IMG/VR virus record: IMGVR_UViG_3300042923_000082
Span: 1-52,452 of that record
Reading direction: 5' to 3' (one strand)
DNA from: a virus
Taxonomy: Duplodnaviria > Caudoviricetes
DNA: 52,452 nucleotides
The notes under the pieces: model-generated
What the model saw: only the letters and a program-made list of their open reading frames with translations
The model's database searches: none
Told to the model about the DNA's origin: nothing
Translations under genes and position numbers: made by a program
Part shown: positions 4,896 to 52,390 of the stretch, piece by piece
How the letters are laid out: the number at the start of each line of letters is the position of its first letter
How positions within the stretch are numbered: the first letter of the stretch is position 1

Positions 4896-4911
4896 AAAGG
4901 AGGTATTCACA

Positions 4912-5376
4912 ATGCAAATATATAACGACGAACAACTCTATCACTTTGGCATCAAAGGTATGCACTGGGGTAAACGAAAATACGACGGTCATACATTAAC
5001 TGATAAAGAAAAAAAAGGAGTATCAAAAGAATACACATCGAATATGAAGAAAGCCACTAACAATATAAAAAAACAAGAATTGGATATCCATGTTAAATCA
5101 TATAATAAAGCCGCTAATAATATGAATAATGGCGGTATTGATAAATTTAATAAACAACAAGAAAAAAAATACGGATCAAATTATATGAATAGAAAAGATT
5201 ATGAGAATGATTATATGAAGTTATTCGATAGCACATACTCTAAATACAGAACTGAAACTGTAAGTAATTTACTTAAAAATGATAAAAATTTTAAAGAAGG
5301 TCAAAAATTAGTTGATAAATATAAGATGCTTGAATGGGATAAATTAGCTAAAGATAATCAACAATTTATTAAATAA
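4912..5376 (+). CDS. Hypothetical protein with QLYHFGIKGMHWG leader, between terL and portal
   Basis: SD AGGAGG before ATG 4912 (better start than 4885); MQIYNDEQLYHFGIKGMHWG. Confidence 0.75.
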   Translation: MQIYNDEQLYHFGIKGMHWGKRKYDGHTLTDKEKKGVSKEYTSNMKKATNNIKKQELDIHVKSYNKAANNMNNGGIDKFNKQQEKKYGSNYMNRKDYENDYMKLFDSTYSKYRTETVSNLLKNDKNFKEGQKLVDKYKMLEWDKLAKDNQQFIK

Positions 5377-12587: not shown

Positions 12588-12965
12588 ATGATAACATTTG
12601 GTAACAAAGGTGATTTCTCAAAAACATTAGATTTTTTAAATAATACATCCAAAAATAAGATAACAAGAATACTAGACAAATACGGTAACGAAGGTGTTGA
12701 AATACTTTCAAAAAATACACCATTAGATTCGGGAGTAACTTCTTCATCTTGGTATTATAAGATCGAAACAGTTAAGGGTAAGGCAACTATATCCTGGTTT
12801 AATTCTAATGTTGTAAATGGAGTGCCAATCGCCATAATATTACAATATGGTCATGGTACTCAAAATGGTGGTTATGTTGCAGGAAGGGACTATATTAACC
12901 CTGCAATGAAACCACTGTTTGATAAAATTGCAAATCAAGTATGGAAGGAGGTTATTAATAAATGA
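12588..12965 (+). CDS. HK97 gp10-like tail completion protein
   Basis: TPLDSG...LQYGHGT...DYINPAM motifs. Confidence 0.75.
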   Translation: MITFGNKGDFSKTLDFLNNTSKNKITRILDKYGNEGVEILSKNTPLDSGVTSSSWYYKIETVKGKATISWFNSNVVNGVPIAIILQYGHGTQNGGYVAGRDYINPAMKPLFDKIANQVWKEVINK

Positions 12966-15900: not shown

Positions 15901-17587
15901 TAAAAACATCGCAGTTACAGCATCTGGATTAGTTATTATGGGTGGTGCTTTAATATTAATAGCTGATGCACTTAAAAACATGGGTAGTATGTCCTGGGAA
16001 GAAATAGCTAAAGGTTTAATTACTATGGGTGGAGCTTTAACTATTCTATCTATAGCGTTATCGTCAATGACTGGGTCGCTTGCCGGGTCTGCAGCATTAT
16101 TAGTTGCAGCAGGAGCATTAATGATATTAGCACCAGCGTTGTCTATGCTTGGAGCTATGACATGGGAAAGTATAATTAAAGGTCTTGTAGATTTAGCAGC
16201 TACAATAGCTATATTTGCAATAGCCGCAGCAGTATTAACTCCGATACTTCCATCTATGCTTGGTTTGGGAGCAGCTTTGGTTTTACTAGGGGTATCTATG
16301 ATTGGTATAGGTGCTGGTTTAGCATTAGTTGGTGTAGGTTTGTCAGGGGTAGCAGCAGGGTTTATATTATTGGCTGGCGTTACAGCTACAGGTGCAACTG
16401 CTATTGTTACAGCATTAGGAATTATAATAATAGGTGTAGCTGCATTGATACCTCAAGTTATGGCTAAAATTGGCGAAGGTATAATAGCGTTCTGTAAAGT
16501 ATTATCTGATGGTATACCTACAATAGTAGCCACAATAACTACTATAATAGCAGCCATCGTAGATTGTATAGTTACAAATATACCAGTAATACTAAACGGA
16601 GTGTTAACAACACTATCATCTATACTTGATGCTTTAATAACTTGGATTCCAACTATAAGTCAGAAAGTTGCAGATATAATACTTGCCCTATTAAAAGTTA
16701 TAGCAGATAATATACCTAAATTCGTAAAGGCTGGGGTAGACATAATAGTTGGATATATTCAAGGGATTACTGATAGTTTACCTAAGGTTATAGACGCAGC
16801 AGCTAAATTAATTGTTAGTTTTATAAATGGATTAGCTGATGCTGTCGATGCTAACGCAGGACCAATGGGAGATGCGTGTTTAAAATTAGTAAAAGCTATA
16901 GTAGATGGCATACGTTCACTAGAAGATAAGTTCATAGACGCTGGTATATATGCAGTACAAGGATATATAAAAGGATTAGCAAGTATGCCTGGAAAGATAT
17001 GGGATGCTGGAGCAGCATTAGGTAATGAAGCACTTGCAGCAGCTAAAAAAGCATTGAAAGAGCATTCACCATCTAGAGAATTTAAACAAGTTGGAGTTTA
17101 CGCAGGTGAAGGTCTTGTTATAGGTCTTAATAATATGGGAACTAAAGTGTCTAATGCTGGATATGATATGGGATCTAATGCTCTCGACTCGATGTCAAAC
17201 TCTATTGCTGGCATTACAGATGTTATTAATAGTGACATAGATTCACAACCGGTTATACGACCAGTTTTAGATTTAACAGACATTCAAAATGGAAGTAACA
17301 AATTATATAGTATGATGAATGGTATAGACAATTATGGAATAGACAGTTCTATAAATTCAGTTAGTTCAACTGCTAGGAGTATACAAAGTAAACAGGTTGT
17401 TAATGAACCTATTAATAATGGAGGTACTAATTTAGCAACTACAAATAACCCAACAACATCGAAACAACCAATGGCAATACAACTAGTATTACAAAATGGA
17501 AAGGCTATTGCTGAGTACATAATTGATGATGTAGATAATTTAATGGGTGTTAAAAATAACTTTACAGGAAGGATGGTTGGATCATGA
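12962..17587 (+). CDS. Tape measure protein
   Basis: 1541 aa, Ala/Gly/Ile-rich periodic repeats (SWxEIAKGL), N-terminal tape-measure domain, HSPSR motif. Confidence 0.93.
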   Translation: MSSIDERILSMKFDNKQFESGVATSMNTLNGLKKGLDLSGSAKGLESINDAAKRVSFDGMANSIESVKVKFSALQVIAVTALSNIANSAVTAGKNLISSLTIDPIMEGFKEYETQMNAIQTILANTSTKGTTLVEVKAALQELNTYSDKTIYNFTEMSKNIGTFTAAGVDLKTSTAAIKGIANLAAVSGSNSQQASTAMYQLSQALAAGRVNLQDWNSVVNAGMGGAVFQNSLKETGKLMGKNIDESQSFRDSISDKDGTGWLTSDVLIATLQKFTGDMTASELAAKGYTQTQIESIIKMGQTANDAATKVKTFTQLLDTLKEAVGSGWAQTWQTLFGDFEEAKVMFTDVSNVLGGIIGASSKARNDMLTGWKDLGGRTALIDAIKNAFDGVMSVVTTLSGAFRDIFPATTSAQLFSFTEGLKSLTENFKFSETTLSNLRSTFKGVFAILDIGKTIFLAVANAIGIMLGGVGDLGSSILGLTGSLGEWFTALDNSIKKSDVFNKVLTALAYGIKNAFSSIAFVFDLVVKGMQKVIAVISEKISLPSFEDIQAFLELLGKRMTSISNEADGMKTVISGAFVGIAKSIADSKIGELFTAIWNTVKVVSDSIGTLVGKMADSITKAFSNANFSGMFDAIAGVSIGAVAISISKFLKSLTEPLHGLQGMIDGVTGILDGVRGSFEAYQQNLKAGILLKLAMAIGILAASIVAISLIDSGKLTSSLAAIGTLFAQLLIAMKLFTTIGEFKGGVIKASIVMITMSTAILILSTAMAKLATLDWNGIAKGTVGIAALSGTLVATSKLLSTGSGSMIKGSAGIVAFALAIKVLASACADLSKLSWNELAKGLTGVGVLLAEISVFLNTAKFSAKSTLTATGIVILAAAMKVLASACADFGNLSWSEISKGLISIGVLLGELSLFSNITGNAKNVISTGVALIAIAAAMKILASAMADFGRMSWSEIAKGLVAMGVALTEISIAVKLMPKNIAVTASGLVIMGGALILIADALKNMGSMSWEEIAKGLITMGGALTILSIALSSMTGSLAGSAALLVAAGALMILAPALSMLGAMTWESIIKGLVDLAATIAIFAIAAAVLTPILPSMLGLGAALVLLGVSMIGIGAGLALVGVGLSGVAAGFILLAGVTATGATAIVTALGIIIIGVAALIPQVMAKIGEGIIAFCKVLSDGIPTIVATITTIIAAIVDCIVTNIPVILNGVLTTLSSILDALITWIPTISQKVADIILALLKVIADNIPKFVKAGVDIIVGYIQGITDSLPKVIDAAAKLIVSFINGLADAVDANAGPMGDACLKLVKAIVDGIRSLEDKFIDAGIYAVQGYIKGLASMPGKIWDAGAALGNEALAAAKKALKEHSPSREFKQVGVYAGEGLVIGLNNMGTKVSNAGYDMGSNALDSMSNSIAGITDVINSDIDSQPVIRPVLDLTDIQNGSNKLYSMMNGIDNYGIDSSINSVSSTARSIQSKQVVNEPINNGGTNLATTNNPTTSKQPMAIQLVLQNGKAIAEYIIDDVDNLMGVKNNFTGRMVGS

Positions 17588-25247: not shown

Positions 25248-25250
25248 CCC

Positions 25251-25280
25251 ACGCGAAAATAACAACTCCTATTATGAGAA
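25251..25280 (+). promoter_or_regulatory. Conserved phage promoter-like motif P1
   Basis: ACGC GAAAATA ACA ACTCC TATTATGAGAA. Confidence 0.8.
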
Positions 25281-25302
25281 AGAATATAGGAGGATGATTA
25301 TT

Positions 25303-25470: not shown

Positions 25471-25505
25471 ATTGGGCTTTACAAAGGCTCTTTCTTTTTG
25501 TTTTT
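25469..25505 (+). terminator. Terminator (GGCTCTTTCTTTTT type)
   Basis: GGGCTTT ACA AAGGCTC + U-tract. Confidence 0.7.
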
Positions 25506-25535
25506 ACGCTAAAATAACACATCATATTATGAGAA
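25506..25535 (+). promoter_or_regulatory. Promoter-like motif P2
   Basis: ACGC TAAAATA ACA CATCA TATTATGAGAA. Confidence 0.8.
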
Positions 25536-25552
25536 ATATAAACTAAATAGGA

Positions 25553-25776: not shown

Positions 25777-25799
25777 GGAGAGCATTGACTCTTCTTTTT
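25777..25799 (+). terminator. Terminator
   Basis: GGAGAG CATTGA CTCTTC + TTTTT. Confidence 0.65.
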
Positions 25800-25829
25800 A
25801 CGCATAATATACATACTCTATTATGAGGA
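25800..25829 (+). promoter_or_regulatory. Promoter-like motif P3
   Basis: ACGC ATATAAT ACA TACTC TATTATGAGGA. Confidence 0.78.
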
Positions 25830-25840
25830 TAGTGATTAAT

Positions 25841-25942: not shown

Positions 25943-25971
25943 AGTGGAGTCTAACAAAGGCTCTTTCTTTT
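25941..25971 (+). terminator. Terminator
   Basis: GGAGTCT AACAA AGGCTCT + TTCTTTT. Confidence 0.7.
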
Positions 25972-26001
25972 ACGCGAAAATTACATACACTATTATGAGA
26001 A
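25972..26001 (+). promoter_or_regulatory. Promoter-like motif P4
   Basis: ACGC GAAAATT ACA TACAC TATTATGAGAA. Confidence 0.8.
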
Positions 26002-26165
26002 ATAGACGACGGTTCAATTCCGTTTATATAGTGGTCTATCTATATCTCAGGACAATGGATAAATGTGGGTGAGAACCCCATGGTAAGATACGAAGGTGGA
26101 CAGACAACTCTGTTCCTACCGGGCAACAGTTTTCGATAGGCTGACCCTGAATACATTGTTCTTTA
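26002..26165 (+). ncRNA. Putative structured non-coding RNA with T-loop-like hairpins
   Basis: No SD/ORF, raised GC; ATAGAC/GTCTAT enclosing ACGG-TTCAATT-CCGT; GGACAATG/CATTGTTC enclosing three hairpins. Confidence 0.65.
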
Positions 26166-26689: not shown

Positions 26690-27412
26690 ATGTTAAATAA
26701 ATTAATAAGAAAAGACAAACAATTCTTACTAAATTTCACAGCAGTTTTAGGAGTTGGTCTAACTATGGTATCGACAATAAGGGATACTACTAAAGCTTGT
26801 AAATTAGTAACTGAAGATATGACATTAAAAGAGAAAATAAAGAAGACTTGGAAATGTTATATACCATCAGGGGTTATAGCAACTAGTACTATGCTTTGTA
26901 TAATTTACTCGGATAAGGTATCTATGAATGAAAAAATAGCTTTAATAAATACCTTAACCACCATACAAGGTAATTATAGAGATTTAAGAACTGCTGTGGA
27001 TGAGACATGTGATCCCAAGACAAAAGAAGAAATACTTAAGAGGACTGTTAAAAATAAAGTACCACGAGAATTATACATTGAACGAACTGAAGAAAAAATA
27101 TTTTATGAAGAATATAGTGGTAAACACTTCACTAGTACAATCGATAATGTTCTTAAAGCAGAATATATGTTTAATAAACAATTATCGATTGTTGGTTATG
27201 CATCACTAAACGAATTTTATGATTTTCTTGGAGTATCTAAAACTACTGAAGGTGAATATCTTGGTTGGTCAGTATATGATGGATATTTCGGATCATCTTC
27301 TATTAATCCATGGGTAGACTTTGAACATAGTAAAATGGAAGACGATAACGGTATTGAATATTTTCATATAGAGTATAGTAATCAACCAGATGTAAATTAT
27401 GATATATTTTAA
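26690..27412 (+). CDS. DUF6353-like protein, paralog 1
   Basis: N-terminal hydrophobic helices; GYASLNEFYDFLG...GW. Confidence 0.7.
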   Translation: MLNKLIRKDKQFLLNFTAVLGVGLTMVSTIRDTTKACKLVTEDMTLKEKIKKTWKCYIPSGVIATSTMLCIIYSDKVSMNEKIALINTLTTIQGNYRDLRTAVDETCDPKTKEEILKRTVKNKVPRELYIERTEEKIFYEEYSGKHFTSTIDNVLKAEYMFNKQLSIVGYASLNEFYDFLGVSKTTEGEYLGWSVYDGYFGSSSINPWVDFEHSKMEDDNGIEYFHIEYSNQPDVNYDIF

Positions 27413-27413
27413 C

Positions 27414-27443
27414 ACGCGAAAAACACAAGCACTATTATGAGAA
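27414..27443 (+). promoter_or_regulatory. Promoter-like motif P5
   Basis: ACGC GAAAAAC ACA AGCAC TATTATGAGAA. Confidence 0.8.
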
Positions 27444-27470
27444 AATAATAAATTTTAGGAGGAAAAAGAA

Positions 27471-27676: not shown

Positions 27677-27704
27677 TAAGATTGAGCTTAGGCTCTTTCT
27701 TTTT
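27677..27704 (+). terminator. Terminator (identical to the one at 40961)
   Basis: GAGCT TA GGCTC + TTTCTTTTT. Confidence 0.7.
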
Positions 27705-27734
27705 ACGCAATAAAAACATAGCCTATTATGAGAA
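27705..27734 (+). promoter_or_regulatory. Promoter-like motif P6
   Basis: ACGC AATAAAA ACA TAGCC TATTATGAGAA. Confidence 0.8.
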
Positions 27735-27760
27735 ATATATTAATTTGGAGGATGATAATT

Positions 27761-27955: not shown

Positions 27956-28681
27956 GTGATGAAACCAATTATTAAAACAGCGAGAAACTTATTAAATAGA
28001 AATGCCTCGGATCTATTATTAGTGGGCGGAGTAGCTTGTATATTAGGCGGTGGTATATTAGCCATTAGACAAACCCCTAAAGCAGTACAATTAATGGAAA
28101 ATAAGAAAGATAAACCAACTATTGATAAAATTAAAACAGTAGCTCCATTATATATACCACCATTGCTACTTACGGGAGTCGGTATAGCACAAATTGTATG
28201 CTCTAGAAATATAACTAACAATAAGATAGCAGCAATGGCAACCGCTTACACAGTATCAGAGACGGCTTTTAAGACTTACAGAGAAAAGGTTAAAGATATA
28301 GTAGAACCTGATAAATATGAAGAGATTAAAAGAGAAGTTGCCGACGAACAGTTAAGAAGAGATCCAATAGGTAATAAGGAAATAATAATGACTACTAGGG
28401 GTAACGTTCTAATGTACGACAATATGTCAGGAAGATATTTAAAGAGTACAATGGATGATGTAGACAGAGCTGTAAATATTCTAAACAAAAGAATGATGAG
28501 TGACATGACTGTATTGTTAAATGATTTTTATACTGAAATAGGTCTGGATGTCATTAAACTAGGATGTGAGGTTGGATGGGATATTGAGAAAGACTCAATA
28601 GATGTTAGATACACTTCAACTATAGCTGACAATGGAGAACCTTGTTTAGTTATGGATTACGAGGTTGTTGTATTAAGATAA
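27956..28681 (+). CDS. DUF6353-like protein, paralog 2
   Basis: TPKA...YIPP...LNDFYTEIG...VGW. Confidence 0.7.
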   Translation: MMKPIIKTARNLLNRNASDLLLVGGVACILGGGILAIRQTPKAVQLMENKKDKPTIDKIKTVAPLYIPPLLLTGVGIAQIVCSRNITNNKIAAMATAYTVSETAFKTYREKVKDIVEPDKYEEIKREVADEQLRRDPIGNKEIIMTTRGNVLMYDNMSGRYLKSTMDDVDRAVNILNKRMMSDMTVLLNDFYTEIGLDVIKLGCEVGWDIEKDSIDVRYTSTIADNGEPCLVMDYEVVVLR

Positions 28682-28682
28682 C

Positions 28683-28712
28683 ACGCAGAAATTACAAGCA
28701 CTATTATGAGAA
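28683..28712 (+). promoter_or_regulatory. Promoter-like motif P7
   Basis: ACGC AGAAATT ACA AGCAC TATTATGAGAA. Confidence 0.8.
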
Positions 28713-28740
28713 ATACTTATTTTGAAAGGGGATTATTAAA

Positions 28741-32255: not shown

Positions 32256-35200
32256 ATGCTTGACTTTTTAGTTGTGTCTTCTAGAAGTACTAAACGTGGT
32301 TGCATAGAAGTATATCCTAAATTTATAATAAAAAAGAGTTCTGATTTGATGGTTAGAGGTGGCGATTTTTACGCAATTTGGAATGAAAATAGAGGTCTAT
32401 GGTGTACTGATGAAAACGACGCATTGATGCTTATAGACAAGGAATTAGATGATTATGCTGAGAAAAATAAAGGAGCTTTCAATTCCGAAGTTAAGGTATT
32501 ACACATGTGGGATGCTGAAACTGGAATGATAGATAACTGGCATAAATATTGTCAAAAACAAATGAGAGATAACTATATATCTCTTGACGAACGAATCATA
32601 TTCTCAAATAGTGAGTCTAATAAAAAAGAGTATGCTAGTAAAATGTTAGATTATCCTTTAATAAGTGGATCATATTCCGGGTATGATAAACTTATAGGAA
32701 CTCTATACAGTGAAGAAGAACGTCATAAGATTGAATGGGCTATAGGAGCAGTAATAACTGGTGCATCTAAGCATATTCAAAAATTTATGGTGTTCTATGG
32801 TTCAGCAGGTGCTGGTAAGAGTACTATACTAAATATAATACAAGAATTATTTCATGGATACTATTCAGTGTTTGATGCTAAAGCCCTTGGCTCATCGAGT
32901 AATTCATTTGCATTGGAATCATTTAAGGGTAATCCACTTGTAGCAATTCAACATGATGGTGATCTATCTAAAATTGAAGATAATACAAGACTTAATAGTT
33001 TAGTATCTCATGAGTTAATGACAGTTAATGAAAAGTTTAAATCAACCTATGCTTCCAAGTTTAAATGTTTCTTATTTATGGGCACAAATAAACCAGTCAA
33101 GATAACCGATGCTAAGTCAGGGTTAATAAGAAGACTTATTGATGTTGTTCCTTCTGGAAATAAAGTTGCTAATGCTGAATATAATTCCATAATGTCAAAT
33201 ATAAAGTTTGAGCTAAGTGGAATAGCGTATCATTGCAAGGAAGTATTTGAATCTAATCCTAATTATTATGATGGATATATTCCTGTAAATATGTTAGGTG
33301 CTTCAAATGATTTCTACAATTTTATTCTAGATGCTTATTATGTATTTTCTAAAGATGACACCACAACCTTAAAAGCTGGTTGGGAGATGTATAAAAACTA
33401 TTGTGTAGATTCGAATATACAATATCCATTTTCACAAAGAGCATTTAAGGAGGAACTTAGAAATTACTTTAACGAGTTTAGAGAAAGAGATGCTATAGAT
33501 GGAAATAGAGTTAGAAATGTATATGTTGGTTTTAAGAAAGATATATTTATAGAGAATAAAGAAATTGATACTGTTGGAGATTTAGAAGAATACTCAATAG
33601 AATTTATAGAGGGTATCGAATCTATATTTGACAAAGAATTAAAAGACTGCAAAGCTCAATTAGCTAATGCAGAAGAAATACCATCATATAAATGGGACAA
33701 AGTTGATTCATCATTAAGTCAAATAAATACTAAAAAATTACATTATGTTAGAGTTCCACTTAATCATATAGTAATAGACTTTGATATCCCAGATGGAAAC
33801 GGTAAGAAATCATTTGAATTAAATTTAAAGGCGGCTAATAAATGGCCAAAAACATACTCTGAATTAAGTAAGAGTGGAGCAGGTATTCATCTTCATTATA
33901 TTTATACTGGAGATGCTAGTAAATTAAGTAGGGTGTACGATGAGCATGTTGAGGTAAAGATATTCAATGGTAATTCATCTCTTAGAAGAAAATTGACAAA
34001 ATGTAACGATCTTCCTATAAGTGAAATAAGTTCTGGATTACCTTTAAAGAAAGGGGACAATATGATTGACAATAATATAATTAAAAATGAAAAAATGTTA
34101 CGTATCATGGTTAAGAAAAACCTAAACAAGGAGATACATCAAGGTACTAAACCAAGTGTTGACTTTATATATAAGAATTTAGAGGATGCTAAAAAAGAAG
34201 GTTTTTCATATGATGTTACTGATTTGAGAAACTCAGTATTAGCATTCGCAGCTAATAGTAGTCACCAAGCTGATTATTGTATTAAGCTTGTAAATAAAAT
34301 GAACTTTAAATCCGAGGAAAGAAGCGACTCAGTTTCAAGTAAAAAAGATGAAATCATATTCTTTGACTGTGAAGTATTTCCTAATCTGTTCTTAGTAAAC
34401 TGGAAAATAAGAGGTGAAGGTAAACCAGTTGTTAGAATGATAAACCCAAAACCACAAGATATAGAAGAATTACTAAATTTCAATTTAGTAGGATTCAATT
34501 GTCGAAGATATGATAATCATATGTTGTATGGATGTCTGATGGGATATACTAATATTCAGTTATATAATCTGTCTCAGAAGATAATATCTGGGGTTAAAGG
34601 TTGTATGTTTGGAGAGGCGTATAATTTATCTTACACTGATGTATATGACTTTGCTTCAGCTCCTAATAAACAATCACTTAAGAAATATGAAATACAATTA
34701 GGATTAAAACATCACGAGTTGGGATTACCATGGGATCAACCAATACCAGAGGATATGTGGATTAAAGTTGCTGAATATTGTGATGATGATGTGTTAGCTA
34801 CTGAGGCTACTTTCAACTACTTAGAAAATGACTGGACAGCTAGAAAGATATTAGCTAAGATGGCTGATAAATCAGTAAACGACTCAACAAATTCCCTATC
34901 TACAAAGATAGTATTTGGTAATAATAGGAAACCACAAGACGAGTTTAATTATAGAGATATGTCTAAACCTGTATATTTTCCAGACGACTTAAAGTGGACT
35001 CCAGAAGAAGATCCTGATGGATATTTTGATGATATGGATAAGGTACCTTTTGATGAGGTAAACCTACCAATGTATGAATTTATAAAAGAAAACAATATAC
35101 TACCATTGAAATTCACAGCTTATAATGGTGAAAAGAGTGTATTACCATTCTTCCCAGGATATAAATTTGAATTTGGTAAATCTACTTATAGAGGTGAAGA

Positions 35201-36278
35201 AGCTGGAGAAGGTGGATTTGTATATGCCGAACCAGGTATATATCACGATGTTGCATTATTAGACGTAGCTTCTATGCATCCAACTTCTATGATAACAGAG
35301 TGTGTGTTCGGTCCTAAATATACTGGAAGATTTAGGGATATTGTACAATCTAGAATAGCTATAAAACATAACGATACTGACTCTATAAAGACTCTATTAG
35401 ACGGGTTATTATTTGAAGTATTGAAAGAAGGGACATACTCTACCAAAGCATTAGGAGTAGCTTTGAAAACTCCTATCAATTCGGCATATGGATTAACTAG
35501 TGCTTCTTTTGAAAACCCTTTCAGAGACCCAAGAAACAAAGATAATATAGTGGCTAAGCGTGGAGCATTATTCATGATTGATCTATTAAATGAGGTTAAA
35601 TCTTTAGGATTTACGGTTGCTCATATTAAAACAGATTCTATAAAGATACCTAATGCTACTCCTGAGATAATAAAACGTGTTATGGAATTTGGTAAGCAAT
35701 ATGGATATACATTTGAACATGAGGCTACTTACGAGAAGATATGTTTAGTAAATGATGCAGTATATGTAGCTAAATATGCTGATAAGGAAAAATGTGAGAA
35801 ACTATATGGATATATTCCAGGGGATAATTACGAACATGGTGACGAATGGACAGCTACTGGTACACAATTCCAAGTACCATATGTATTCAAGAAGTTGTTT
35901 AGTAAAGAACCAATAGAATTTGAAGATCTATGTGAGACTAAGTCTGTAAGTTCATGTATGTATTTAAACATGAATACTGATATTCCAAATGAGGAAGTTA
36001 AAGTCGAAGATATGCAATTTATAGGTAAGGTTGGAGCTTTCACACCCATGAAGAAAGGATATGGAGGTAATTTATTAAGACAAGCTGTTGATAAAAACAC
36101 TGGAGATTTCAAATATGGTTATGTAAATGGTAGTAAAGGATATTACTGGTTAGAGAGTGACATGGTCAAGGAATTAAATAAGGAAGAATATATAGACCGA
36201 ACTATATATAACGAATTAGTAAATGATGCAGTTAAGACTATTAGTAAATATGGGGATTTTGAACAATTTGTAGATTAG
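32256..36278 (+). CDS. Fused SF3 helicase - AEP primase/polymerase - family B DNA polymerase with 3'-5' exonuclease
   Basis: YGSAGAGKS Walker A, FMGTN; VIDFDI and SKSGAGIHLHY (prim-pol); FFDCEV, FNCRRYD, YCDDDV (Exo I-III); DVASMHP, KTPINSAYG, KTDS (PolB A-C). Confidence 0.9.
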   Translation: MLDFLVVSSRSTKRGCIEVYPKFIIKKSSDLMVRGGDFYAIWNENRGLWCTDENDALMLIDKELDDYAEKNKGAFNSEVKVLHMWDAETGMIDNWHKYCQKQMRDNYISLDERIIFSNSESNKKEYASKMLDYPLISGSYSGYDKLIGTLYSEEERHKIEWAIGAVITGASKHIQKFMVFYGSAGAGKSTILNIIQELFHGYYSVFDAKALGSSSNSFALESFKGNPLVAIQHDGDLSKIEDNTRLNSLVSHELMTVNEKFKSTYASKFKCFLFMGTNKPVKITDAKSGLIRRLIDVVPSGNKVANAEYNSIMSNIKFELSGIAYHCKEVFESNPNYYDGYIPVNMLGASNDFYNFILDAYYVFSKDDTTTLKAGWEMYKNYCVDSNIQYPFSQRAFKEELRNYFNEFRERDAIDGNRVRNVYVGFKKDIFIENKEIDTVGDLEEYSIEFIEGIESIFDKELKDCKAQLANAEEIPSYKWDKVDSSLSQINTKKLHYVRVPLNHIVIDFDIPDGNGKKSFELNLKAANKWPKTYSELSKSGAGIHLHYIYTGDASKLSRVYDEHVEVKIFNGNSSLRRKLTKCNDLPISEISSGLPLKKGDNMIDNNIIKNEKMLRIMVKKNLNKEIHQGTKPSVDFIYKNLEDAKKEGFSYDVTDLRNSVLAFAANSSHQADYCIKLVNKMNFKSEERSDSVSSKKDEIIFFDCEVFPNLFLVNWKIRGEGKPVVRMINPKPQDIEELLNFNLVGFNCRRYDNHMLYGCLMGYTNIQLYNLSQKIISGVKGCMFGEAYNLSYTDVYDFASAPNKQSLKKYEIQLGLKHHELGLPWDQPIPEDMWIKVAEYCDDDVLATEATFNYLENDWTARKILAKMADKSVNDSTNSLSTKIVFGNNRKPQDEFNYRDMSKPVYFPDDLKWTPEEDPDGYFDDMDKVPFDEVNLPMYEFIKENNILPLKFTAYNGEKSVLPFFPGYKFEFGKSTYRGEEAGEGGFVYAEPGIYHDVALLDVASMHPTSMITECVFGPKYTGRFRDIVQSRIAIKHNDTDSIKTLLDGLLFEVLKEGTYSTKALGVALKTPINSAYGLTSASFENPFRDPRNKDNIVAKRGALFMIDLLNEVKSLGFTVAHIKTDSIKIPNATPEIIKRVMEFGKQYGYTFEHEATYEKICLVNDAVYVAKYADKEKCEKLYGYIPGDNYEHGDEWTATGTQFQVPYVFKKLFSKEPIEFEDLCETKSVSSCMYLNMNTDIPNEEVKVEDMQFIGKVGAFTPMKKGYGGNLLRQAVDKNTGDFKYGYVNGSKGYYWLESDMVKELNKEEYIDRTIYNELVNDAVKTISKYGDFEQFVD

Positions 36279-36608: not shown

Positions 36609-37103
36609 ATGAAAAACAATAATTTAATAATCGAGGATGCTAGAATAATATTTAGAAACTTTGCAGGGGCTGAAGGTAAATATAATAGAGCAGGCGATAG
36701 AAACTTTGGAGTTGTGTTAGACGATTCAAGAGATGCAGAGAGATTATCTTTAGATGGTTGGAATGTCAAGGTATTAAAACCTAGAGACGAAGAAGATGAA
36801 CCTACTCATTATTTACCAGTAACTGTTAATATGGACGGAATGAATCCTCCCAAAGTAAATATGGTCACTAAAAGAAATATAGTTGAATTAGATGGTGAGA
36901 GTATAGAGACTCTCGACTTCGTTGAAATAGCAAATGTAGATGTTACAATTAGACCTTACGACTGGGAAGTTAATGGTAAGACCGGTAGAAAGGCATATTT
37001 GAAGAATATGTATGTTAAGATAGTGGAAGATGATTTAGCTAGAAAATATACTAATGGTTACGATGACGACGAACCTATGGAATCCTTTAGTTATATACGC
37101 TAG
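36609..37103 (+). CDS. Probable single-stranded DNA-binding protein
   Basis: [10 protein letters not shown]...DVTIRPYDW...KAYL; acidic tail; located in the replication module. Confidence 0.7.
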
Positions 37104-37126
37104 ATTTACAAGCTCTATTATGAGAA
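37097..37126 (+). promoter_or_regulatory. Promoter-like motif P8
   Basis: ACGC TAGATTT ACA AGCTC TATTATGAGAA. Confidence 0.8.
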
Positions 37127-37146
37127 ATATTTAGGAGATGATTATT

Positions 37147-40235: not shown

Positions 40236-40715
40236 ATGAACGAAAAAATTGATATTATACTAGATGAAATTAAAGCTCTATGTAAAAGTAATAGTATAGA
40301 AGTTACAAATAAATATGAAGAATGTATTAAATCGAATGTTCTAATATTTAGAAAAAATGATAGAAAAATGGCTTTTGAAATTAGAGAAGGAATGCTTAGA
40401 TTTCTCCCTTGTGAATATATTATAGCTGATATAAACCAACAAATAAATGATAAACTTCTAATTCCCAATGCTCCAGAAGAGGTATTCGATAAAGTAATGG
40501 AAGAGATTAAAACACTATGTGATGACAATGGCATATATTTAAAATATTATTATAGTGATGATCACAATATTTGTACATTTAGATTTTCAAAATTTGGCAA
40601 AACATTTAGATATTCTATTAGTTCTACTGATATATTATACAAAAATGTGAGAAACTATGAAATACACGATAGAATGATTAAAATGTATGATGCGGCTAGA
40701 AATGAAATAGGATAA
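40236..40715 (+). CDS. Hypothetical protein with internal duplication
   Basis: SD AGGAGG; EIKALCKSNSI...FRK vs EIKTLCDDNGI...FSK. Confidence 0.65.
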   Translation: MNEKIDIILDEIKALCKSNSIEVTNKYEECIKSNVLIFRKNDRKMAFEIREGMLRFLPCEYIIADINQQINDKLLIPNAPEEVFDKVMEEIKTLCDDNGIYLKYYYSDDHNICTFRFSKFGKTFRYSISSTDILYKNVRNYEIHDRMIKMYDAARNEIG

Positions 40716-40745
40716 ACGCATAATATACACGTCCTATTATGAGAA
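40716..40745 (+). promoter_or_regulatory. Promoter-like motif P9
   Basis: ACGC ATAATAT ACA CGTCC TATTATGAGAA. Confidence 0.8.
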
Positions 40746-40760
40746 AATATTATATAGGAG

Positions 40761-44593: not shown

Positions 44594-44727
44594 ACGAATA
44601 TAACGATCTAAGAGATAAAGCTAATGATATTATGCGAATGTATGATAGACTTCATTTTTTAGAAAGTAGAATGAGAGAGATCGATAGAATGATAGAAGAT
44701 CTAGAAACCCGTAAGGTGAATAAATAA
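44575..44727 (+). CDS. 50-aa coiled-coil protein (not in the ORF track)
   Basis: MVTIPLNEYNDLRDKA...; ends immediately before P10. Confidence 0.55.
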   Translation: MVTIPLNEYNDLRDKANDIMRMYDRLHFLESRMREIDRMIEDLETRKVNK

Positions 44728-44728
44728 A

Positions 44729-44758
44729 GCGCTTAATAAACATCCCCTATTATGAGAA
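44729..44758 (+). promoter_or_regulatory. Promoter-like motif P10
   Basis: GCGC TTAATAA ACA TCCCC TATTATGAGAA. Confidence 0.75.
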
Positions 44759-44784
44759 ATACTTATATTAGAGGAGGAATTGAA

Positions 44785-45377: not shown

Positions 45378-45388
45378 GAATTGTAAGT

Positions 45389-45418
45389 ACGCGAAAATTA
45401 CAACCTATATTATGAAAA
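45389..45418 (+). promoter_or_regulatory. Promoter-like motif P11
   Basis: ACGC GAAAATT ACA ACCTA TATTATGAAAA. Confidence 0.78.
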
Positions 45419-45450
45419 ATATTAAAGTATAATATATGGAGGTAATTGAT

Positions 45451-46472: not shown

Positions 46473-46763
46473 ATGTTTACAAAAGTATTAATAGATCCAA
46501 TAGAAATAGAATATATACAATTTGATTATACCAATGCAGATTGTGTTCGTAACACAGTTAGTGAATTACAAATGAATATAGAACCGTCTTTGGATAGTTT
46601 AAATCAACCTTATTTAATCATACCAACAACCGATGGAGAACTAACTTGTCATATTGGAGATTATATAATTAAATATCCTGATCCAAAAGACTGGTGTAAA
46701 TTTATGTGTTGTAGTCCAGTGGTATTTAAAAGTCTGATGAAAGTATTTGGCGTGGAGTTATAA
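46473..46763 (+). CDS. Small conserved phage protein, distant paralog of 38646..38891
   Basis: PIEIEYIQF...IPTTDG...IGDYIIK...CSPVVF. Confidence 0.65.
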   Translation: MFTKVLIDPIEIEYIQFDYTNADCVRNTVSELQMNIEPSLDSLNQPYLIIPTTDGELTCHIGDYIIKYPDPKDWCKFMCCSPVVFKSLMKVFGVEL

Positions 46764-46765
46764 GT

Positions 46766-46795
46766 ACGCGAGTTTTACATGTCATATTATGAGAA
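46766..46795 (+). promoter_or_regulatory. Promoter-like motif P12
   Basis: ACGC GAGTTTT ACA TGTCA TATTATGAGAA. Confidence 0.8.
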
Positions 46796-46897
46796 GATAG
46801 CAACTTAATTGTAAAGAGCCTCTCGAAAGATATAGTTCTCTCATGGTAAGAGAGCCCTGAAATAAGGGGTGAGGACATGTTCGAATCCTGTGCTATT
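46796..46897 (+). ncRNA. tRNA-like non-coding RNA with an expanded, multi-hairpin anticodon domain
   Basis: Acceptor-like GATAGCA/TGCTATT, D-like CTT-AATTGTA-AAG, T-arm CATG-TTCGAAT-CCTG, followed by a U-tract. Confidence 0.65.
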
Positions 46898-47564: not shown

Positions 47565-47574
47565 AAGGTGTTTT

Positions 47575-47604
47575 ACGTGGTTTTTACATGGGCTATTATG
47601 AGAA
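47575..47604 (+). promoter_or_regulatory. Promoter-like motif P13
   Basis: ACGT GGTTTTT ACA TGGGC TATTATGAGAA. Confidence 0.75.
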
Positions 47605-47628
47605 CTTATTTTGAAAGGGGATAATAAA

Positions 47629-48408: not shown

Positions 48409-48449
48409 TTTAAAAAAGAATACAATTACTCTTTCTTTTTATTTCGGGC

Positions 48450-48479
48450 ACGCGAAAATTACATGCCCTTTTATAGAGA
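48450..48479 (+). promoter_or_regulatory. Variant promoter-like motif P14
   Basis: ACGC GAAAATT ACA TGCCC TTTTATAGAGA; flanked by a GGGCA/TGCCC inverted repeat. Confidence 0.7.
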
Positions 48480-48534
48480 GAATAGGCATTTTTGAATGTT
48501 ATGTAAATTAAATTTTACACTCTCTCTATTTTTT
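48473..48534 (+). promoter_or_regulatory. Structured leader / attenuator-like three-way junction
   Basis: ATAGAGAGA/TCTCTCTAT 9-bp stem enclosing two hairpins, then TTTTT. Confidence 0.55.
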
Positions 48535-48576
48535 GGTGTACAAGCTATTTATAAATTATTAAGGGGTGGTTAACAA

Positions 48577-48873
48577 ATGTTAGAGAGTAAGTTTCAGAGT
48601 AACCTAATTAAAAAAATAAAGACAATGTTTGAAGATTGTATAGTTTTAAAAAATGACGCTAACTATATTCAGGGTTTTCCTGATATTTTAATTTTGTACA
48701 AAGACAAATGGGCGACCCTAGAGAATAAAAGATCTAGTACTGCATCTCATAGACCTAATCAATCATTTTATGTAGATCTTACAAATAAGATGTCATTCTC
48801 AAGATTCATATATCCAGAGAATGAAAAGGAGGTATTAGATGAACTTCAACAGGCATTTGGATCTAAAAGATAA
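48577..48873 (+). CDS. VRR-NUC / PD-(D/E)xK nuclease (Holliday junction resolvase-like)
   Basis: LESKFQ...GFPD...LENK...RPNQ. Confidence 0.85.
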   Translation: MLESKFQSNLIKKIKTMFEDCIVLKNDANYIQGFPDILILYKDKWATLENKRSSTASHRPNQSFYVDLTNKMSFSRFIYPENEKEVLDELQQAFGSKR

Positions 48874-49399
48874 ACATGCTTATTTAGGAGCTTCTAAATA
48901 TAGTTGGTTAAACTATTCAGAAGATAAATTAAAAGAAGCATATAATAGATCTGTAGCAGCACAAAAAGGAACTATGATACATGAGTTCGCAGCTAATTGT
49001 ATAAAATTAAGACAAAAATTACCTAAGAGTGAAAAGACACTAAACAAATATGTTAATGATGCTATTGGATATAAGATGCATTGTGAAAAAATATTATTCT
49101 ATTCTGATAATTGTTTCGGTACTGCTGATGCTATTAGTTTTAGAAATGGTTTGTTGAGAATACATGATTTAAAAACAGGAGTTATTCCAGCTCATATAGA
49201 ACAGCTTCTAATCTATGCAGCTCTATTTTGTTTGGAATATAAACTAAGACCATCGGAAATTGATATTGAGTTAAGAATTTATCAGAATGATGAAGTAGTA
49301 TATCATATACCAGAAGGTGATGATATAGTTCCTATCATGGATAAAATAAAAACTTTTGACAAAATCATAAATGATATTAAGAAAGAGGATGATATTTGA
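48839..49399 (+). CDS. Cas4-like / DUF2800-like PD-(D/E)xK exonuclease
   Basis: GTMIH, E, FGTADAI, IHDLKTG, QLLIYA. Confidence 0.8.
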   Translation: MNFNRHLDLKDKHAYLGASKYSWLNYSEDKLKEAYNRSVAAQKGTMIHEFAANCIKLRQKLPKSEKTLNKYVNDAIGYKMHCEKILFYSDNCFGTADAISFRNGLLRIHDLKTGVIPAHIEQLLIYAALFCLEYKLRPSEIDIELRIYQNDEVVYHIPEGDDIVPIMDKIKTFDKIINDIKKEDDI

Positions 49400-52143
49400 T
49401 GAATGATGATCATCTTGAACATTATGGTACTAAAAAACATTCAGGAAGATATAAATGGGGTTCAGGCAACGATCCATACCAACATAGTGGAGATTTTTTA
49501 AGTAGAGTTGACACATTAGAAAAAAGTGGAATGAGTGAAAAAGATGTAGCTGAAAGTCTTGGTCTAAACACAAGCCAACTTAGAATACAAAAATCACTAG
49601 CTAATTCAGAACGTAAAAATCTATTGTATGAAGAAGCGGTAAGTTTAAGAAATAAAGGTTATTCTCTTTCTAAAACCGCTGAATTAATGGGTTACAATAA
49701 TGACTCATCAATTAGATCATTATTAGATGAAAATAGTTTAGAAAGATCTAAGCAAGCTACAAAAACTGCTGACTTTCTAAAGAAACAAGTTGATGAAAAA
49801 GGTATGATAGATGTTGGTACTGGAGTAGAAAGAGAGCTAGGAGTGTCTAAAGAGAATCTTAAGAAATCTCTTTATATATTGGAGATGCAAGGATATCAAA
49901 CTTTTGGAGGAGGAATAACTCAAGCTACAAACAAAAATCAACAGACTAATTTAAAAGTTCTAACTCCACCAGGAACAGAGCATAAAGATATTTATGAATT
50001 TGATAAGATAAAATCCATAGGTAATTATGTTTCTAGAGATGGTGGTGAGACTTTCGACTCATTCAAATACCCAAGTAGTTTAGATAGTAAAAGATTAGAA
50101 ATAAACTATGGAGATAAAGGTGGATCTGATAAGGATGGAGTTGTAGAATTAAGAAGGGGAGTTAAAGATCTATCATTAGGTAATTCAAACTATGCTCAAG
50201 TTAGAGTCATGGTCGATGATAAACATTATATTAAAGGAATGGCTGTATATACTGATGATTTACCAAAGGGTGTTGATGTTAGGTTTAATACTAATAAACC
50301 TTCTGGAACTCCTTTGGAAAAAGTATTAAAACCTATAAAAGAAGATCCAGATAATCCTTTCGGTTCATTGATAAAAGCAGGTGGTCAAAATTATTATGAT
50401 GATCCTAATGGTAAACATATAGACCCAATAACTGGAAAAAAACAATCATTGTCATTAATTAATAAAAGAGCAGAAGAAGGAGATTGGACCGAATGGAAAG
50501 ATAAATTACCTTCGCAATTTTTGGCTAAACAAAATCTATCACTTATCAAGAAACAATTAGATCTAACAAAAAGTGAAAGAGAATCTGAATTTGATGAAAT
50601 TAATTCACTATCTAATCCAACAATTAAAAAAGCTTTATTAAAAACGTTTTCTGATGATTGTGATTCTGCTGCAGTTCATTTAAAGTCAGCAGCTCTACCA
50701 AGACAGAAGTATCATGTAATACTTCCTATAAACTCATTAAAGGACAACGAAGTATATGCACCTAATTATGAGAATGGTGAAAAACTAGCTTTAGTGAGAT
50801 TTCCACATGGTGGTACATTTGAAATTCCTATACTAACAGTTAATAATAAAAATAAAGATGGTAAGAATATTATAGGATCTAATGCTAAAGATGCTGTTGG
50901 TATAACTAGTAAAGTAGCTGAAAGATTATCAGGTGCAGATTTTGATGGTGATACAGTATTAACAGTACCTACAGGAAAGAATGTAAACATAACTTCTACT
51001 AATCCGTTAAAAGGGTTAGAAGGATTCGATAGTAAGTCTTATAAATATTCTAAGTCTAAGACTGATAAAGATGGTAATGAACATTACTATACTGCTGACG
51101 GTACAGAATTTAGAAGAATGAAGAACACACAAACCGAAATGGGTAAAATTTCTAATCTTATAACTGATATGACTTTAAAAGGTGCTTCAGAAGATGATCT
51201 AGCTAAAGCAGTTAGACATTCAATGGTTGTTATAGATGCTGAAAAGCACATACTAAACTATAAGAAGTCTGAAGTAGATAATGGTATAGCTTCTTTAAAA
51301 AGTAAGTATCAAGGTCATTATGACGATCAAGGTAAGTGGCATTCTGGTGGGGCATCGACATTATTATCTAGAGCTAAATCCAAAATAGATATAGTTAAAC
51401 GAAAAGGATCTCCAATTATAGATCCAATTACAGGAGAACAATCGTGGAAAGAGAATTATCAAGAATACACTGACCCTAAAGGAAAAGTTCAAGTTAGAGC
51501 TCAAAAGTCTACTAAGATGTTCGAGACTAATGATGCTCGTACATTATCAAGTGGAACACCTCAAGAAGAAGCTTATGCTGACTATGCTAATAAGATGAAG
51601 TCTTTAGCTAATCAAGCTCGTAAAGAGATGATCTCAACAGGAGACATCAAGTATTCCGCTGAAGCTAAAACTAAGTATTTAAATGAGGTTAATTCTTTAA
51701 ACGCCCAGTTAAATGTATCACTAATGAACGCTCCAAAGGAAAGGCGTGCTCAAGTAATAGCAAATACTGCTATTAAAGCTAAGCAACAAGAGTATCCAGA
51801 TTTATCTAAAGGTGAGTTAAAGAAGATAAGTCAACAAGCTTTAAACGCTGCACGAATTCAGGTTGGAGCTAAGAGAGAACTTATAAAGATCTCAGATAAA
51901 GAATGGGAAGCTATACAAGCCGGTGCAATAAGTCCTAACAAACTAAGTCAGATAATAAACAACTCTGACATGGACATACTAAGACAGAGAGCTACACCTA
52001 GATCTACTAAAGAACTAAGTCAAGTTAAGATTAATAAGATTAATTCAATGTCTAAGTCTGGTTATAGTACTGCTGAGATAGCTAAAAGTTTAGGAATGTC
52101 AAGCACAACTATTGTTAACTACATGAAAGGAGGATTGGATTAA
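49396..52143 (+). CDS. Single-chain double-psi beta-barrel DNA-dependent RNA polymerase (YonO/RdRP-like) with HTH domains
   Basis: KDG, AQVR-x8-IKG (barrel B-like); LVRFPH and LSGADFDGD (catalytic barrel); HTH-like segments at the N- and C-termini. Confidence 0.8.
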   Translation: MMNDDHLEHYGTKKHSGRYKWGSGNDPYQHSGDFLSRVDTLEKSGMSEKDVAESLGLNTSQLRIQKSLANSERKNLLYEEAVSLRNKGYSLSKTAELMGYNNDSSIRSLLDENSLERSKQATKTADFLKKQVDEKGMIDVGTGVERELGVSKENLKKSLYILEMQGYQTFGGGITQATNKNQQTNLKVLTPPGTEHKDIYEFDKIKSIGNYVSRDGGETFDSFKYPSSLDSKRLEINYGDKGGSDKDGVVELRRGVKDLSLGNSNYAQVRVMVDDKHYIKGMAVYTDDLPKGVDVRFNTNKPSGTPLEKVLKPIKEDPDNPFGSLIKAGGQNYYDDPNGKHIDPITGKKQSLSLINKRAEEGDWTEWKDKLPSQFLAKQNLSLIKKQLDLTKSERESEFDEINSLSNPTIKKALLKTFSDDCDSAAVHLKSAALPRQKYHVILPINSLKDNEVYAPNYENGEKLALVRFPHGGTFEIPILTVNNKNKDGKNIIGSNAKDAVGITSKVAERLSGADFDGDTVLTVPTGKNVNITSTNPLKGLEGFDSKSYKYSKSKTDKDGNEHYYTADGTEFRRMKNTQTEMGKISNLITDMTLKGASEDDLAKAVRHSMVVIDAEKHILNYKKSEVDNGIASLKSKYQGHYDDQGKWHSGGASTLLSRAKSKIDIVKRKGSPIIDPITGEQSWKENYQEYTDPKGKVQVRAQKSTKMFETNDARTLSSGTPQEEAYADYANKMKSLANQARKEMISTGDIKYSAEAKTKYLNEVNSLNAQLNVSLMNAPKERRAQVIANTAIKAKQQEYPDLSKGELKKISQQALNAARIQVGAKRELIKISDKEWEAIQAGAISPNKLSQIINNSDMDILRQRATPRSTKELSQVKINKINSMSKSGYSTAEIAKSLGMSSTTIVNYMKGGLD

Positions 52144-52144
52144 C

Positions 52145-52381
52145 ATGAAGAAGCCGATGATAACTACAATAGACAATCCGTATGATCCTCAAAGTGAGTT
52201 CAGCCAATGGTTTGTCTTCGACACCACTAATGGTTATAATACTTGCGCTTATCTAAGTAGAATTGCAAAAACTTCAGAACAATTAAGTGATGAGGAAAAT
52301 GATATCGAGACTGAAAGAGCAATAGATGAAATAATCAAGTATGATTTCCAAAATATTTATAAAAAAATTTATAAAAATTAA
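52145..52381 (+). CDS. Hypothetical acidic protein
   Basis: SD AGGAGG; MITTIDNPYDP...W..FD...GY. Confidence 0.7.
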   Translation: MKKPMITTIDNPYDPQSEFSQWFVFDTTNGYNTCAYLSRIAKTSEQLSDEENDIETERAIDEIIKYDFQNIYKKIYKN

Positions 52382-52390
52382 AAATGTTAT

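Follow-up and report, generated by a model that had tools for sequence, protein, structure and literature searches.

The right end of the virus genome IMGVR_UViG_3300042923_000082 (Duplodnaviria; Caudoviricetes) raises the question of which enzyme transcribes the viral genes, and from which promoters. The window, i.e. the whole IMG/VR record of 52,452 bases, is classed as linear with a CheckV completeness of 87%, has a GC content of about 31%, and carries nearly all of its long open reading frames (ORFs) on the + strand. Its last large gene, an open frame at 49396..52143 (+), was described in an initial annotation as a compact single-chain RNA polymerase (RNAP) with built-in helix-turn-helix (HTH) domains, perhaps packaged in the virion. 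We consider it fairly probable that this gene encodes a single-chain, double-psi beta-barrel, DNA-dependent RNAP of the PHROG 4291 family, whose predicted activity would be promoter-specific and independent of a sigma factor. The predicted fold, the invariant RxP and DFDGD residues, the fused HTH modules, and the family membership form the directly supported part of this best explanation, whereas the sigma-free reading of promoters is what we infer.

The polymerase core and its fused DNA-binding modules

When translated from the TTG codon at 49396, the frame encodes 915 amino acids (aa). At 49399, 9 nt past a GAGGA, there is an in-frame ATG that overlaps with the stop codon of the preceding exonuclease gene. 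Because of this context, and because the identical database protein has 914 aa, the coding sequence probably begins at ATG 49399 (49399..52143, +). Residue numbers given here count the TTG codon as 1.

All motif strings quoted in the initial annotation were found in the translation, namely LVRFPH (R468 and P470), GADFDGD (D515-D519), KDG (D247 and G248), QVR (Q268 and R270), KG (K280 and G281), three HTH-like strings, and the N-terminal DHLEHYG...KWG. Relatives were aligned as a set of 85 sequences with 45-85% identity and as a 52-sequence subset. Both alignments show invariant R468, P470, D515, D517, G518, D519, Q268, R270, K280, and G281, so that the quoted motifs represent more than chance resemblance. 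D294 and K312 are likewise invariant in both, and D247 is invariant in the 52 sequences and conserved in at least 90% of the 85. The R468-F-P470 motif (50797..50805) is found at the expected distance of ~35-50 residues before the metal-binding loop D515-F-D-G-D519 (50938..50952), and the two-barrel polymerase core comprises residues 224-750 (50065..51645; all +).

An AlphaFold2 model computed from the 85-sequence alignment (pLDDT 87.3, pTM 0.80) was compared with the PDB using Foldseek. This gave 25 matches at E ≤ 0.001; among those listed, all were two-barrel RNA polymerases, including QDE-1 (E = 6.9e-9), Thermus phage P32 gp64 (E = 2.7e-6), P74 gp62 (E = 3.5e-6), and the plant enzyme RDR2. 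A viral structure library gave a match to "RNA dependent RNA polymerase" of uncultured phages (E = 2.7e-8). The predicted fold superposes on solved members of the two-barrel class, which, together with the invariant RxP and DxDGD motifs, upholds the core claim of the initial annotation. Of the enzymes proposed there for comparison, QDE-1 was recovered by structure; at the sequence level, the 52-sequence family profile does not align with YonO, the enzyme of the Bacillus prophage SPbeta (hhalign probability 0.2%). The description of the protein as compact or minimal was mistaken, as YonO has 838 aa as translated and the solved Thermus phage enzymes have ~590 aa.

Searches at the sequence level were less telling. 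Neither phmmer with the protein nor hmmsearch with the family profile retrieved a polymerase from the PDB sequences (HTH-type or chance rows only). Likewise, Pfam gave no PF05183 row for the window protein at E ≤ 1, only sub-threshold HTH rows; this RdRP family matches 36 of the 52 relatives at the same limit (best E = 2.9e-6). A second long ORF with a DxDGD string is absent from the window, the only other such string occurring in a 68-aa ORF. A second RNAP domain, as in the tape measure of phage P23-45, was looked for and not found, and the tape-measure ORF (12962..17587) has no DxDGD.

Family membership was unambiguous. PHROG 4291 ("RNA-dependent RNA polymerase") matches the protein end to end (E = 0, 1254.5 bits), with residues 3-911 aligned to profile positions 8-906 of 909. 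The family is very large: a full-library search returned 2359 cluster representatives (50% identity) at E ≤ 0.001, 940 of them at E ≤ 1e-30, and tblastn retrieved 251 phage records (249 of them nearly complete in length), with identities under 60% throughout. These cultured phage genomes come from soil actinobacteria, dairy lactococci, and gut Faecalibacterium (Arthrobacter, 95 records; Gordonia, 55; Streptomyces, 54; Lactococcus, 13; Faecalibacterium phage FP_oengus; and others), and no Bacillus record was named among the 251. The homologues in Lactococcus phage 1706 (orf75), FP_oengus, and the actinophages share 47-51% identity with the window RNAP over the full length as well as the gene order. 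The window member differs from them in its low GC content and in coming from an uncultured virus record.

The family had been flagged as a putative RNAP with HTHs at both termini in 2010 and again in 2021. As far as the available parts of these sources go, Ruprich-Robert and Thuriaux placed the phage 1706 protein among five distant YonO-like families (PMC2919709), and Koert et al. reported an HHpred match to PF05183, HTHs at both ends, and the DxDGD loop (bioRxiv 10.1101/842583). The latter authors also proposed the protein as a possible signature gene of its phage group (10.1101/842583). The window RNAP is therefore a new low-GC member of an already flagged family, and the core reading of the initial annotation is right, although not new. 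The available text of 10.1101/842583 contains zero mentions of "promoter", and the N-terminal peptide discussed below is not described in the accessible portions of either source (PMC2919709; 10.1101/842583). What we propose in addition concerns a promoter class found across host phyla, an attenuator-like leader of the RNAP operon, and a possible cargo role of DUF7211.

The core is flanked by predicted DNA-binding modules. In the model, two N-terminal HTH units (residues 34-135; 49495..49800) are formed by helices H34-43, H48-54, H59-86, H91-98, H103-109, and H112-135, with weak Pfam rows for HTH_8, Xre, and HTH_28. They are followed by a winged-helix-like unit at residues 137-200 (49804..49995), consisting of E137-139, H144-148, H152-164, E168-175, and E183-190. 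The C-terminus carries a sigma-70-region-4-like HTH (residues 871-911; 52006..52128; all +), modeled as three helices at 876-910, for which the Pfam rows HTH_38 (E = 4e-5) and Sigma70_r4_2 (E = 2.9e-4; 20.9 bits versus a cut-off of 25.7) are below cut-off. Across the family this resemblance recurs, with Sigma70_r4_2 matching 52/52 relatives at E ≤ 1 (best 2.9e-12) and Sigma70_r4 matching 43/52. The three HTH-like strings of the initial annotation coincide with modeled HTHs (H48-54/H59-86, H91-98/H103-109, and H892-899/H903-910).

Plausibly, these fused putative HTH modules stand in for a sigma factor, a reading to which the phage-specific promoter class shared across host phyla (see below) lends indirect support. 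No sigma factor was recognized among the 40 longer ORFs scanned in PHROGs. The non-virion RNAPs of the Thermus phages (P23-45 gp64 and P74-26 gp62; ~590 aa) are without fused HTHs, and no fused HTH set is reported for YonO, which also shows no sequence relation in the profile-to-sequence comparison.

The structural neighbors QDE-1 and RDR2 bear on another possible function. These PF05183 proteins are eukaryotic RNA-silencing enzymes with RNA or ssDNA templates, and they are the closest solved folds to the window RNAP. The protein might thus not be a transcriptase at all, and instead make RNA for priming or R-loops in replication and recombination, or carry out RNA-templated synthesis as QDE-1 and RDR2 do. 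The name "RNA-dependent RNA polymerase" in public records and the conserved operon with an endonuclease and an exonuclease would also agree with such a role. However, the phage has its own primase-polymerase fusion (32256..36278), and the RdRP name stems from weak similarity only, according to the part of 10.1101/842583 available. Moreover, promoter-directed transcription accounts better for the four predicted HTH modules and for the promoter-like motif conserved alongside them, and we consider a function outside transcription very improbable.

The promoter-like motif class and the leader of the RNAP operon

A motif of ~34 nt first surfaced by repeat finding. Written as a consensus of ~30 nt (CGCG-AAA-TTACA-N4-CTAT(T/A)AT-GAGAA), it has 14 copies in the window, all on the + strand and only between 25 and 48.5 kb. 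The pattern ACGC-N7-ACA-N5-TATTATGAGAA gave 13 matches with at most one mismatch (all +, 25251-47604), compared with 0.09 expected; the fourteenth, a variant copy at 48447, lies ahead of the RNAP operon. With a position weight matrix (PWM), 14 sites scored at least 28.7 bits on the + strand, whereas no site on the - strand reached 12 bits and the best score in the first 25 kb of the window was 7.5 bits. The first seven sites are found at 25248..25283 (34.1 bits), 25503..25538 (28.7 bits), 25797..25832 (30.0 bits), 25969..26004 (38.5 bits), 27411..27446 (30.7 bits), 27702..27737 (32.1 bits), and 28680..28715 (34.4 bits). They are followed by sites at 37094..37129 (37.8 bits), 40713..40748 (33.9 bits), 44726..44761 (29.5 bits), 45386..45421 (30.3 bits), 46763..46798 (32.2 bits), and 47572..47607 (31.8 bits). 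The last one (48447..48482; 29.4 bits) has the variant CTTTTAT AGAGAGA and heads the operon of endonuclease, exonuclease, and RNAP. Most copies are located a few tens of bases upstream of a ribosome-binding site.

The same motif class occurs in cultured relatives. Arthrobacter phage Mudcat has seven sites (CGCGTAAATTACA-N4-CTATAATGAGAA) and Lactococcus phage 1706 contributed 12 (TTTTACA-N4-CTATAGTAGAAAG), in both phages only in the non-structural half. A weight matrix built from 32 sites of the window, Mudcat, and 1706 was used to scan 80 IMG/VR loci encoding relatives of the RNAP (1.17 Mb). On the RNAP strand, 154 sites reached at least 16 bits, compared with 0 on the other strand and 0 in mononucleotide shuffles. 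Each of the 70 loci whose upstream sequence extends to at least 1300 nt has a site 907-1581 nt before the RNAP gene, mostly at 930-990 nt; in the window, the spacing between motif 14 and the RNAP gene is 949 nt. On the late side, 31 of the 32 loci with downstream sequence show nothing above 8.9 bits. A late promoter of the same class was also missing at the genome junction of the window, where the best PWM score was below 0 bits. Conserved throughout are CGCG, GAGAA, and a TTACA placed 5 bases upstream of the -10-like hexamer. None of them is a sigma-A element, and the -35 region is not sigma-A-like either, since only 2-5 of 6 positions agree with TTGACA when the spacing is correct.

This distribution has to be weighed against the example of YonO, a single-chain two-barrel enzyme of a siphovirus and, as stated in the available part of PMC5467207, a proven DNA-dependent RNAP. 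The late genes of SPbeta form a single operon that YonO transcribes (PMC5467207, in the same part), and yonO immediately precedes this late block in the same orientation, much like the window RNAP gene. By analogy, host sigma-A RNAP would use the 14 motifs as early or middle promoters and thereby make the phage enzyme, which would be kept out of the virion and would transcribe the 25-kb late block as one unit starting downstream of its own gene. The hexamer TATTAT in 13/14 motifs and the result of a sigma-70 scan (given below) speak for this possibility, as does the late region, which is without the early-class promoter and needs something else. On the other hand, CGCG, TTACA, and GAGAA are non-sigma-A elements and yet shared by phages of both Actinobacteria and Firmicutes; no conserved candidate for a late promoter was found; and the family profile fails to align with YonO, as described above. 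Furthermore, YonO serves one late promoter, whereas the window motif marks many early sites. We consider such a late-acting enzyme rather unlikely.

A promoter-specific, sigma-free two-barrel RNAP remains the reading we favor with some confidence, and several points weigh against it. TATTAT is a good -10-like hexamer (5/6 match) in 13 of the 14 sites, and 7/14 sites reach 9 of 12 in the sigma-70 scan. For these two reasons host RNAP could use the motifs, and the conserved flanks could serve another phage factor. The 70 loci are not all independent, yielding 63 distinct leaders when the window is counted in. For the N-terminal region folded on its own (pLDDT 80.9), Foldseek gave 0 matches against the PDB at E ≤ 0.001, the best non-significant rows being the TFIIE winged helix (E = 0.15) and Stf76 (E = 0.63); the term "sigma-like" is thus confined to the C-terminal HTH. 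K280, D294, K312, and D247 are conserved Lys/Asp candidates for the beta-like barrel, and this assignment of the first-barrel catalytic residues comes from the alignment rather than from a mapping in the three-dimensional model. Since the RNAP gene is itself headed by a promoter of this class, an enzyme made only from that promoter could not start the cycle on its own. Finally, the searched literature contains no activity, template, or promoter assay on any PHROG 4291 member.

The motif ahead of the RNAP operon belongs to a sub-class, CTTTTAT-GAAGAGAGA, with a hairpin directly downstream. In the window, this leader hairpin (AUAGAGAGA...UCUCUCUAU, followed by UUUUUU) is located at 48473..48535 (+; -15.5 kcal/mol, z = -2.26). 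Its purine-rich 5′ arm GAAGAGAGAGG pairs with a pyrimidine-rich 3′ arm CCTCTCTCTTTT that runs into a T-tract. Leaders were compared as the window and 62 further distinct sequences from the related loci L006-L084. A stem of at least 7 uninterrupted pairs with a T-rich tail is present in 55/63 distinct leaders compared with 73/1260 shuffles, and in 0/13 of the other window promoters. The arm sequences vary between loci while the pairing is kept. Judged from this pattern, the element looks like a leader terminator or attenuator, or a 5′ stabilizer, which suggests separate control of the RNAP operon and perhaps also of the late genes that follow it. Control of the lambda late operon offers an attenuator-like parallel.

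The initial annotation had also stated that the RNAP gene joins the late genes once the genome circularizes. This fits the map: in a simple scan, no terminator-like site turned up downstream of the RNAP gene as far as 3.2 kb into the late block, and the late region lacks promoters of the motif class. Since such promoters are missing there, the late genes probably need read-through or another polymerase.

In the mechanism we propose, the RNAP would need no sigma factor, and its two N-terminal HTHs, winged helix, and C-terminal HTH would read the ~30-nt promoter. The motif would head 14 transcription units spanning the non-structural half (25-52 kb), including the RNAP's own operon. The leader hairpin and U-tract probably throttle or time the expression of endonuclease, exonuclease, and RNAP, and transcription of the late genes probably relies on read-through that crosses the joined ends from the RNAP operon, or else on another polymerase. 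If the enzyme alone reads the 30-nt motif, it would represent a compact, sigma-free, promoter-specific two-barrel RNAP and offer a simple model of promoter finding by two-barrel polymerases. It might then also provide an orthogonal expression tool for Gram-positive hosts, and it would explain why a single phage backbone can function in hosts from two phyla, namely by bringing its own transcription along.

Two minor observations concern the same promoters. Hairpin-tail elements of the sequence GGCTCTTTCTTTT occur just before several of them (25480-25500, 25953-25973, 45153-45173, 47264-47284, 48092-48112, and 48421-48441) and resemble terminator-promoter junctions that separate early units. The string GGTTCAATTCC had suggested a tRNA after motif 4, but ARAGORN found none.

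The N-terminal peptide and the DUF7211 proteins

The initial annotation had further noted that the RNAP carries a leader shared with head-region proteins and might be packaged in the head. The N-terminal peptide in question (residues 1-31, DDHLEHYGTKKHSGRYKWGSGNDPYQH; 49396..49488, +) follows the near-invariant family consensus L-x-HYG-x-x-R-HSGRYPWGSG-x-x-PYQ. G11, S16, G17, R18, G22, and G24 are invariant in both alignments, and residues 1-31 are disordered in two models (pLDDT < 50).

Four ORFs around the terminase and portal genes contain H-F-G-[IV]-K-G-M-x-W-G after an acidic stretch, which corresponds to Pfam DUF7211 (PF23847), a 25-position motif with a cut-off of 27 bits. These ORFs (all +) encode (i) a small protein with a hydrophobic C-terminal helix (163..579; 30.6 bits); (ii) a DUF7211 leader followed by an ADP-ribosyltransferase-like domain (1695..2582; 31 bits); (iii) a protein directly upstream of the large terminase (2600..3136; above cut-off); and (iv) a protein between the large terminase and the portal (4885..5376; 38.1 bits). 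The arrangement is conserved: in related loci, a DUF7211 ORF ends at most 150 nt before the large terminase in 27/31 cases, another starts at most 150 nt after it in 20/31, and at least one such flanking ORF is present in 30/31. A few DUF7211 ORFs sit in the early region of related loci. Mudcat gp7 and 1706 orf7 contain two motif copies each, and the record of 1706 labels orf7 a "structural protein". No small terminase was recognizable in the window; the DUF7211 ORF upstream of the large terminase may fill the small-terminase role or encode a head protein.

Thus, the DUF7211 leader family is real in the four head-module ORFs, whereas the RNAP peptide turned out to be a sub-threshold look-alike. 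It shares with DUF7211 the acidic-L-x-H-Y-G-[VT]-K start and the W-G, and gave no row against the Pfam DUF7211 model. A profile comparison of the RNAP peptide with DUF7211 segments using hhalign reached a probability of 83.7% (P = 8e-6) over 12 columns, a sub-threshold likeness. When 1425 six-frame ORFs of three phages were ranked with the DUF7211 profile, the three RNAPs took ranks 8, 10, and 12 after seven true members and were thus among the top five non-members (E > 0.001). Reciprocally, Mudcat gp7 and gp9 were the top non-members with the RNAP-peptide profile on the same ORFs (ranks 4 and 5; E > 0.001). Two database proteins, P0011 (1110 aa) and P0029 (1049 aa), consist of DUF7211, a P-loop NTPase domain, and then an RNAP that keeps its own HYG...KWGSG motif. 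Most likely, the near-invariant, disordered N-terminal peptide of the RNAP is a docking motif related to DUF7211.

Additional searches with DUF7211 itself were of limited use. The term "DUF7211" was not mentioned in the searched literature, a word-index search for longer DUF7211 proteins gave one candidate and no hit, and tblastn with ORF 4885..5373 returned only 31 Arthrobacter phage records. DUF7211 was also not among the 25 commonest families in the 52 RNAP relatives.

The ORF at 1695..2582 is of interest for its second domain. In the ESM Atlas, this domain matched ADP-ribosyltransferases (0.97; structural rows for PF03496), including domains that are fused to minor-capsid-2, MuF, or portal domains in other phages. 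A phmmer search of ORF 1695..2579 against PDB sequences gave 0 matches, and the ADP-ribosyltransferase reading comes from the ESM Atlas. Its product may be an injected host-modifying enzyme. In MuF and minor-capsid-2 toxins, an N-terminal module brings variable cargo, including ADP-ribosyltransferases, into phage heads, according to the accessible part of PMC5576092. The window protein has the same cargo fold, but DUF7211 is a 25-residue motif and not a MuF domain. Among further cases of head targeting, the capsid-targeting leader (CTS) of phage T4 and its Alt protein are comparable.

These data bear on whether the RNAP is delivered with the virion. In that case HYG...WGSG at the N-terminus would be a capsid-targeting signal, and a few copies of the RNAP would be packed, injected, and transcribe the 14 promoters from the first minute, with the RNAP gene expressed late among the first cistrons of a read-through late transcript. 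Delivery would solve the bootstrap problem posed by an RNAP operon that is behind a phage-specific promoter in 70/70 loci, and the missing terminator-like sites between the RNAP gene and the late genes would agree with late expression. The peptide is near-invariant yet disordered in both models, as a docking motif would be. The mutual profile likeness with DUF7211, the DUF7211 ORFs flanking the large terminase in nearly all loci, the structural label of 1706 orf7, and the fusion of the ADP-ribosyltransferase fold to head proteins elsewhere point in the same direction. P0011 and P0029 look like modules each starting with the motif, and DUF7211 proteins in general have the appearance of cargo for the head or for ejection. 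Virion two-barrel RNAPs are known from P23-45 and the crAss-like phages, as described in the available part of PMC10770324. P23-45 starts its cycle with a second, tape-measure-fused virion RNAP (gp96), whereas the window has one long DxDGD ORF.

Other findings argue against packaging. The RNAP peptide scores below the Pfam DUF7211 model, and DUF7211 does not rank with the common families of the relatives. Orf75 of 1706 is not labeled structural, although other proteins of that record are. The RNAP gene is co-transcribed with replication/recombination nucleases, and the early-region DUF7211 ORFs show that the motif is no strict mark of the head module; the searched literature offers no function for DUF7211. 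In addition, YonO provides a working non-virion model, its gene also being just before the late block (PMC5467207, available part). On balance, delivery with the virion is a real possibility, although not a probable one.

A wider version would regard the acidic-L-x-H-Y/F-G...W-G peptides, i.e. DUF7211 and its RNAP variant, as a lineage-wide cargo-loading signal that packs the RNAP, the ADP-ribosyltransferase, and small membrane proteins into the head, with the injected RNAP alone driving a promoter class that is near-unchanged across phages of Actinobacteria and Firmicutes. We hold this to be doubtful. Should the N-terminal peptide prove to load the enzyme into the head, this would give DUF7211 a function and define a new way in which phage proteins are co-injected.

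Gene order and further features of the genome

The RNAP operon begins with an endonuclease gene (phrog_93; 48577..48873), followed by an exonuclease gene (phrog_3953; 48839..49399) whose stop overlaps the RNAP start. A conserved small ORF (phrog_4303; 52145..52381; all +) follows the RNAP gene and has counterparts in Mudcat gp95 and 1706 orf76. The order endonuclease-exonuclease-RNAP-small ORF at the right genome end is the same in Mudcat and 1706. Together with its nucleases, the RNAP operon is the last block of the non-structural half, and its only contact with the late genes is across the genome ends. Besides the primase-polymerase fusion, the right half encodes a helicase, an annealing protein, a thymidylate synthase, and many small ORFs.

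The left 25 kb include an HNH endonuclease (910..1323), the large terminase (3150..4895), the portal (5384..6736), a head protease family protein of 567 aa (7577..9280), and the tail genes. The match of the 567-aa protein to a "head maturation protease" family extends over the entire sequence, and ahead of the tail genes no major capsid gene was seen as a separate ORF; the protein is probably a protease-capsid fusion like 1706 orf10. Following the portal, ORF 6705-7565 is Lys/Glu-rich, coiled-coil-looking by eye, and scaffold-like. It begins with ELKHYASDYYDPEKAHEYY, and Mudcat gp11 begins with FLEHYSSQYYDPQKAHEYY, a further L-x-H-Y N-terminal motif in the head module.

Both window ends share the 12-nt sequence CCCTAAAAAATC (1-12 and 52441-52452), beside a GC-rich stretch. 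This terminal overlap points to an assembly that is circular or was cut close to the physical end. Between the GC-rich end region and the first late ORF, an inverted repeat with arms of ~26 nt (CAGAGATGTCTTTTAAACGCGCCTAG / CTAGGCGTGTTTAAAAGATATCTCTG) is present at 30-135, which may be a cos/terminase site or a regulatory site. A megablast of 40000-52452 against phage records gave no match. For 44000-52452, no RNA run was listed, and six DNA runs labeled soil metagenome contain the region. In the early region, three paralogous ORFs belong to phrog_2152, a family of unknown function (26690-27412, 27956-28681, and 30020-30934). Finally, 11-nt direct repeats (TTGCCCACTTT) are clustered at 47388-47494 and may form an iteron- or origin-like array.

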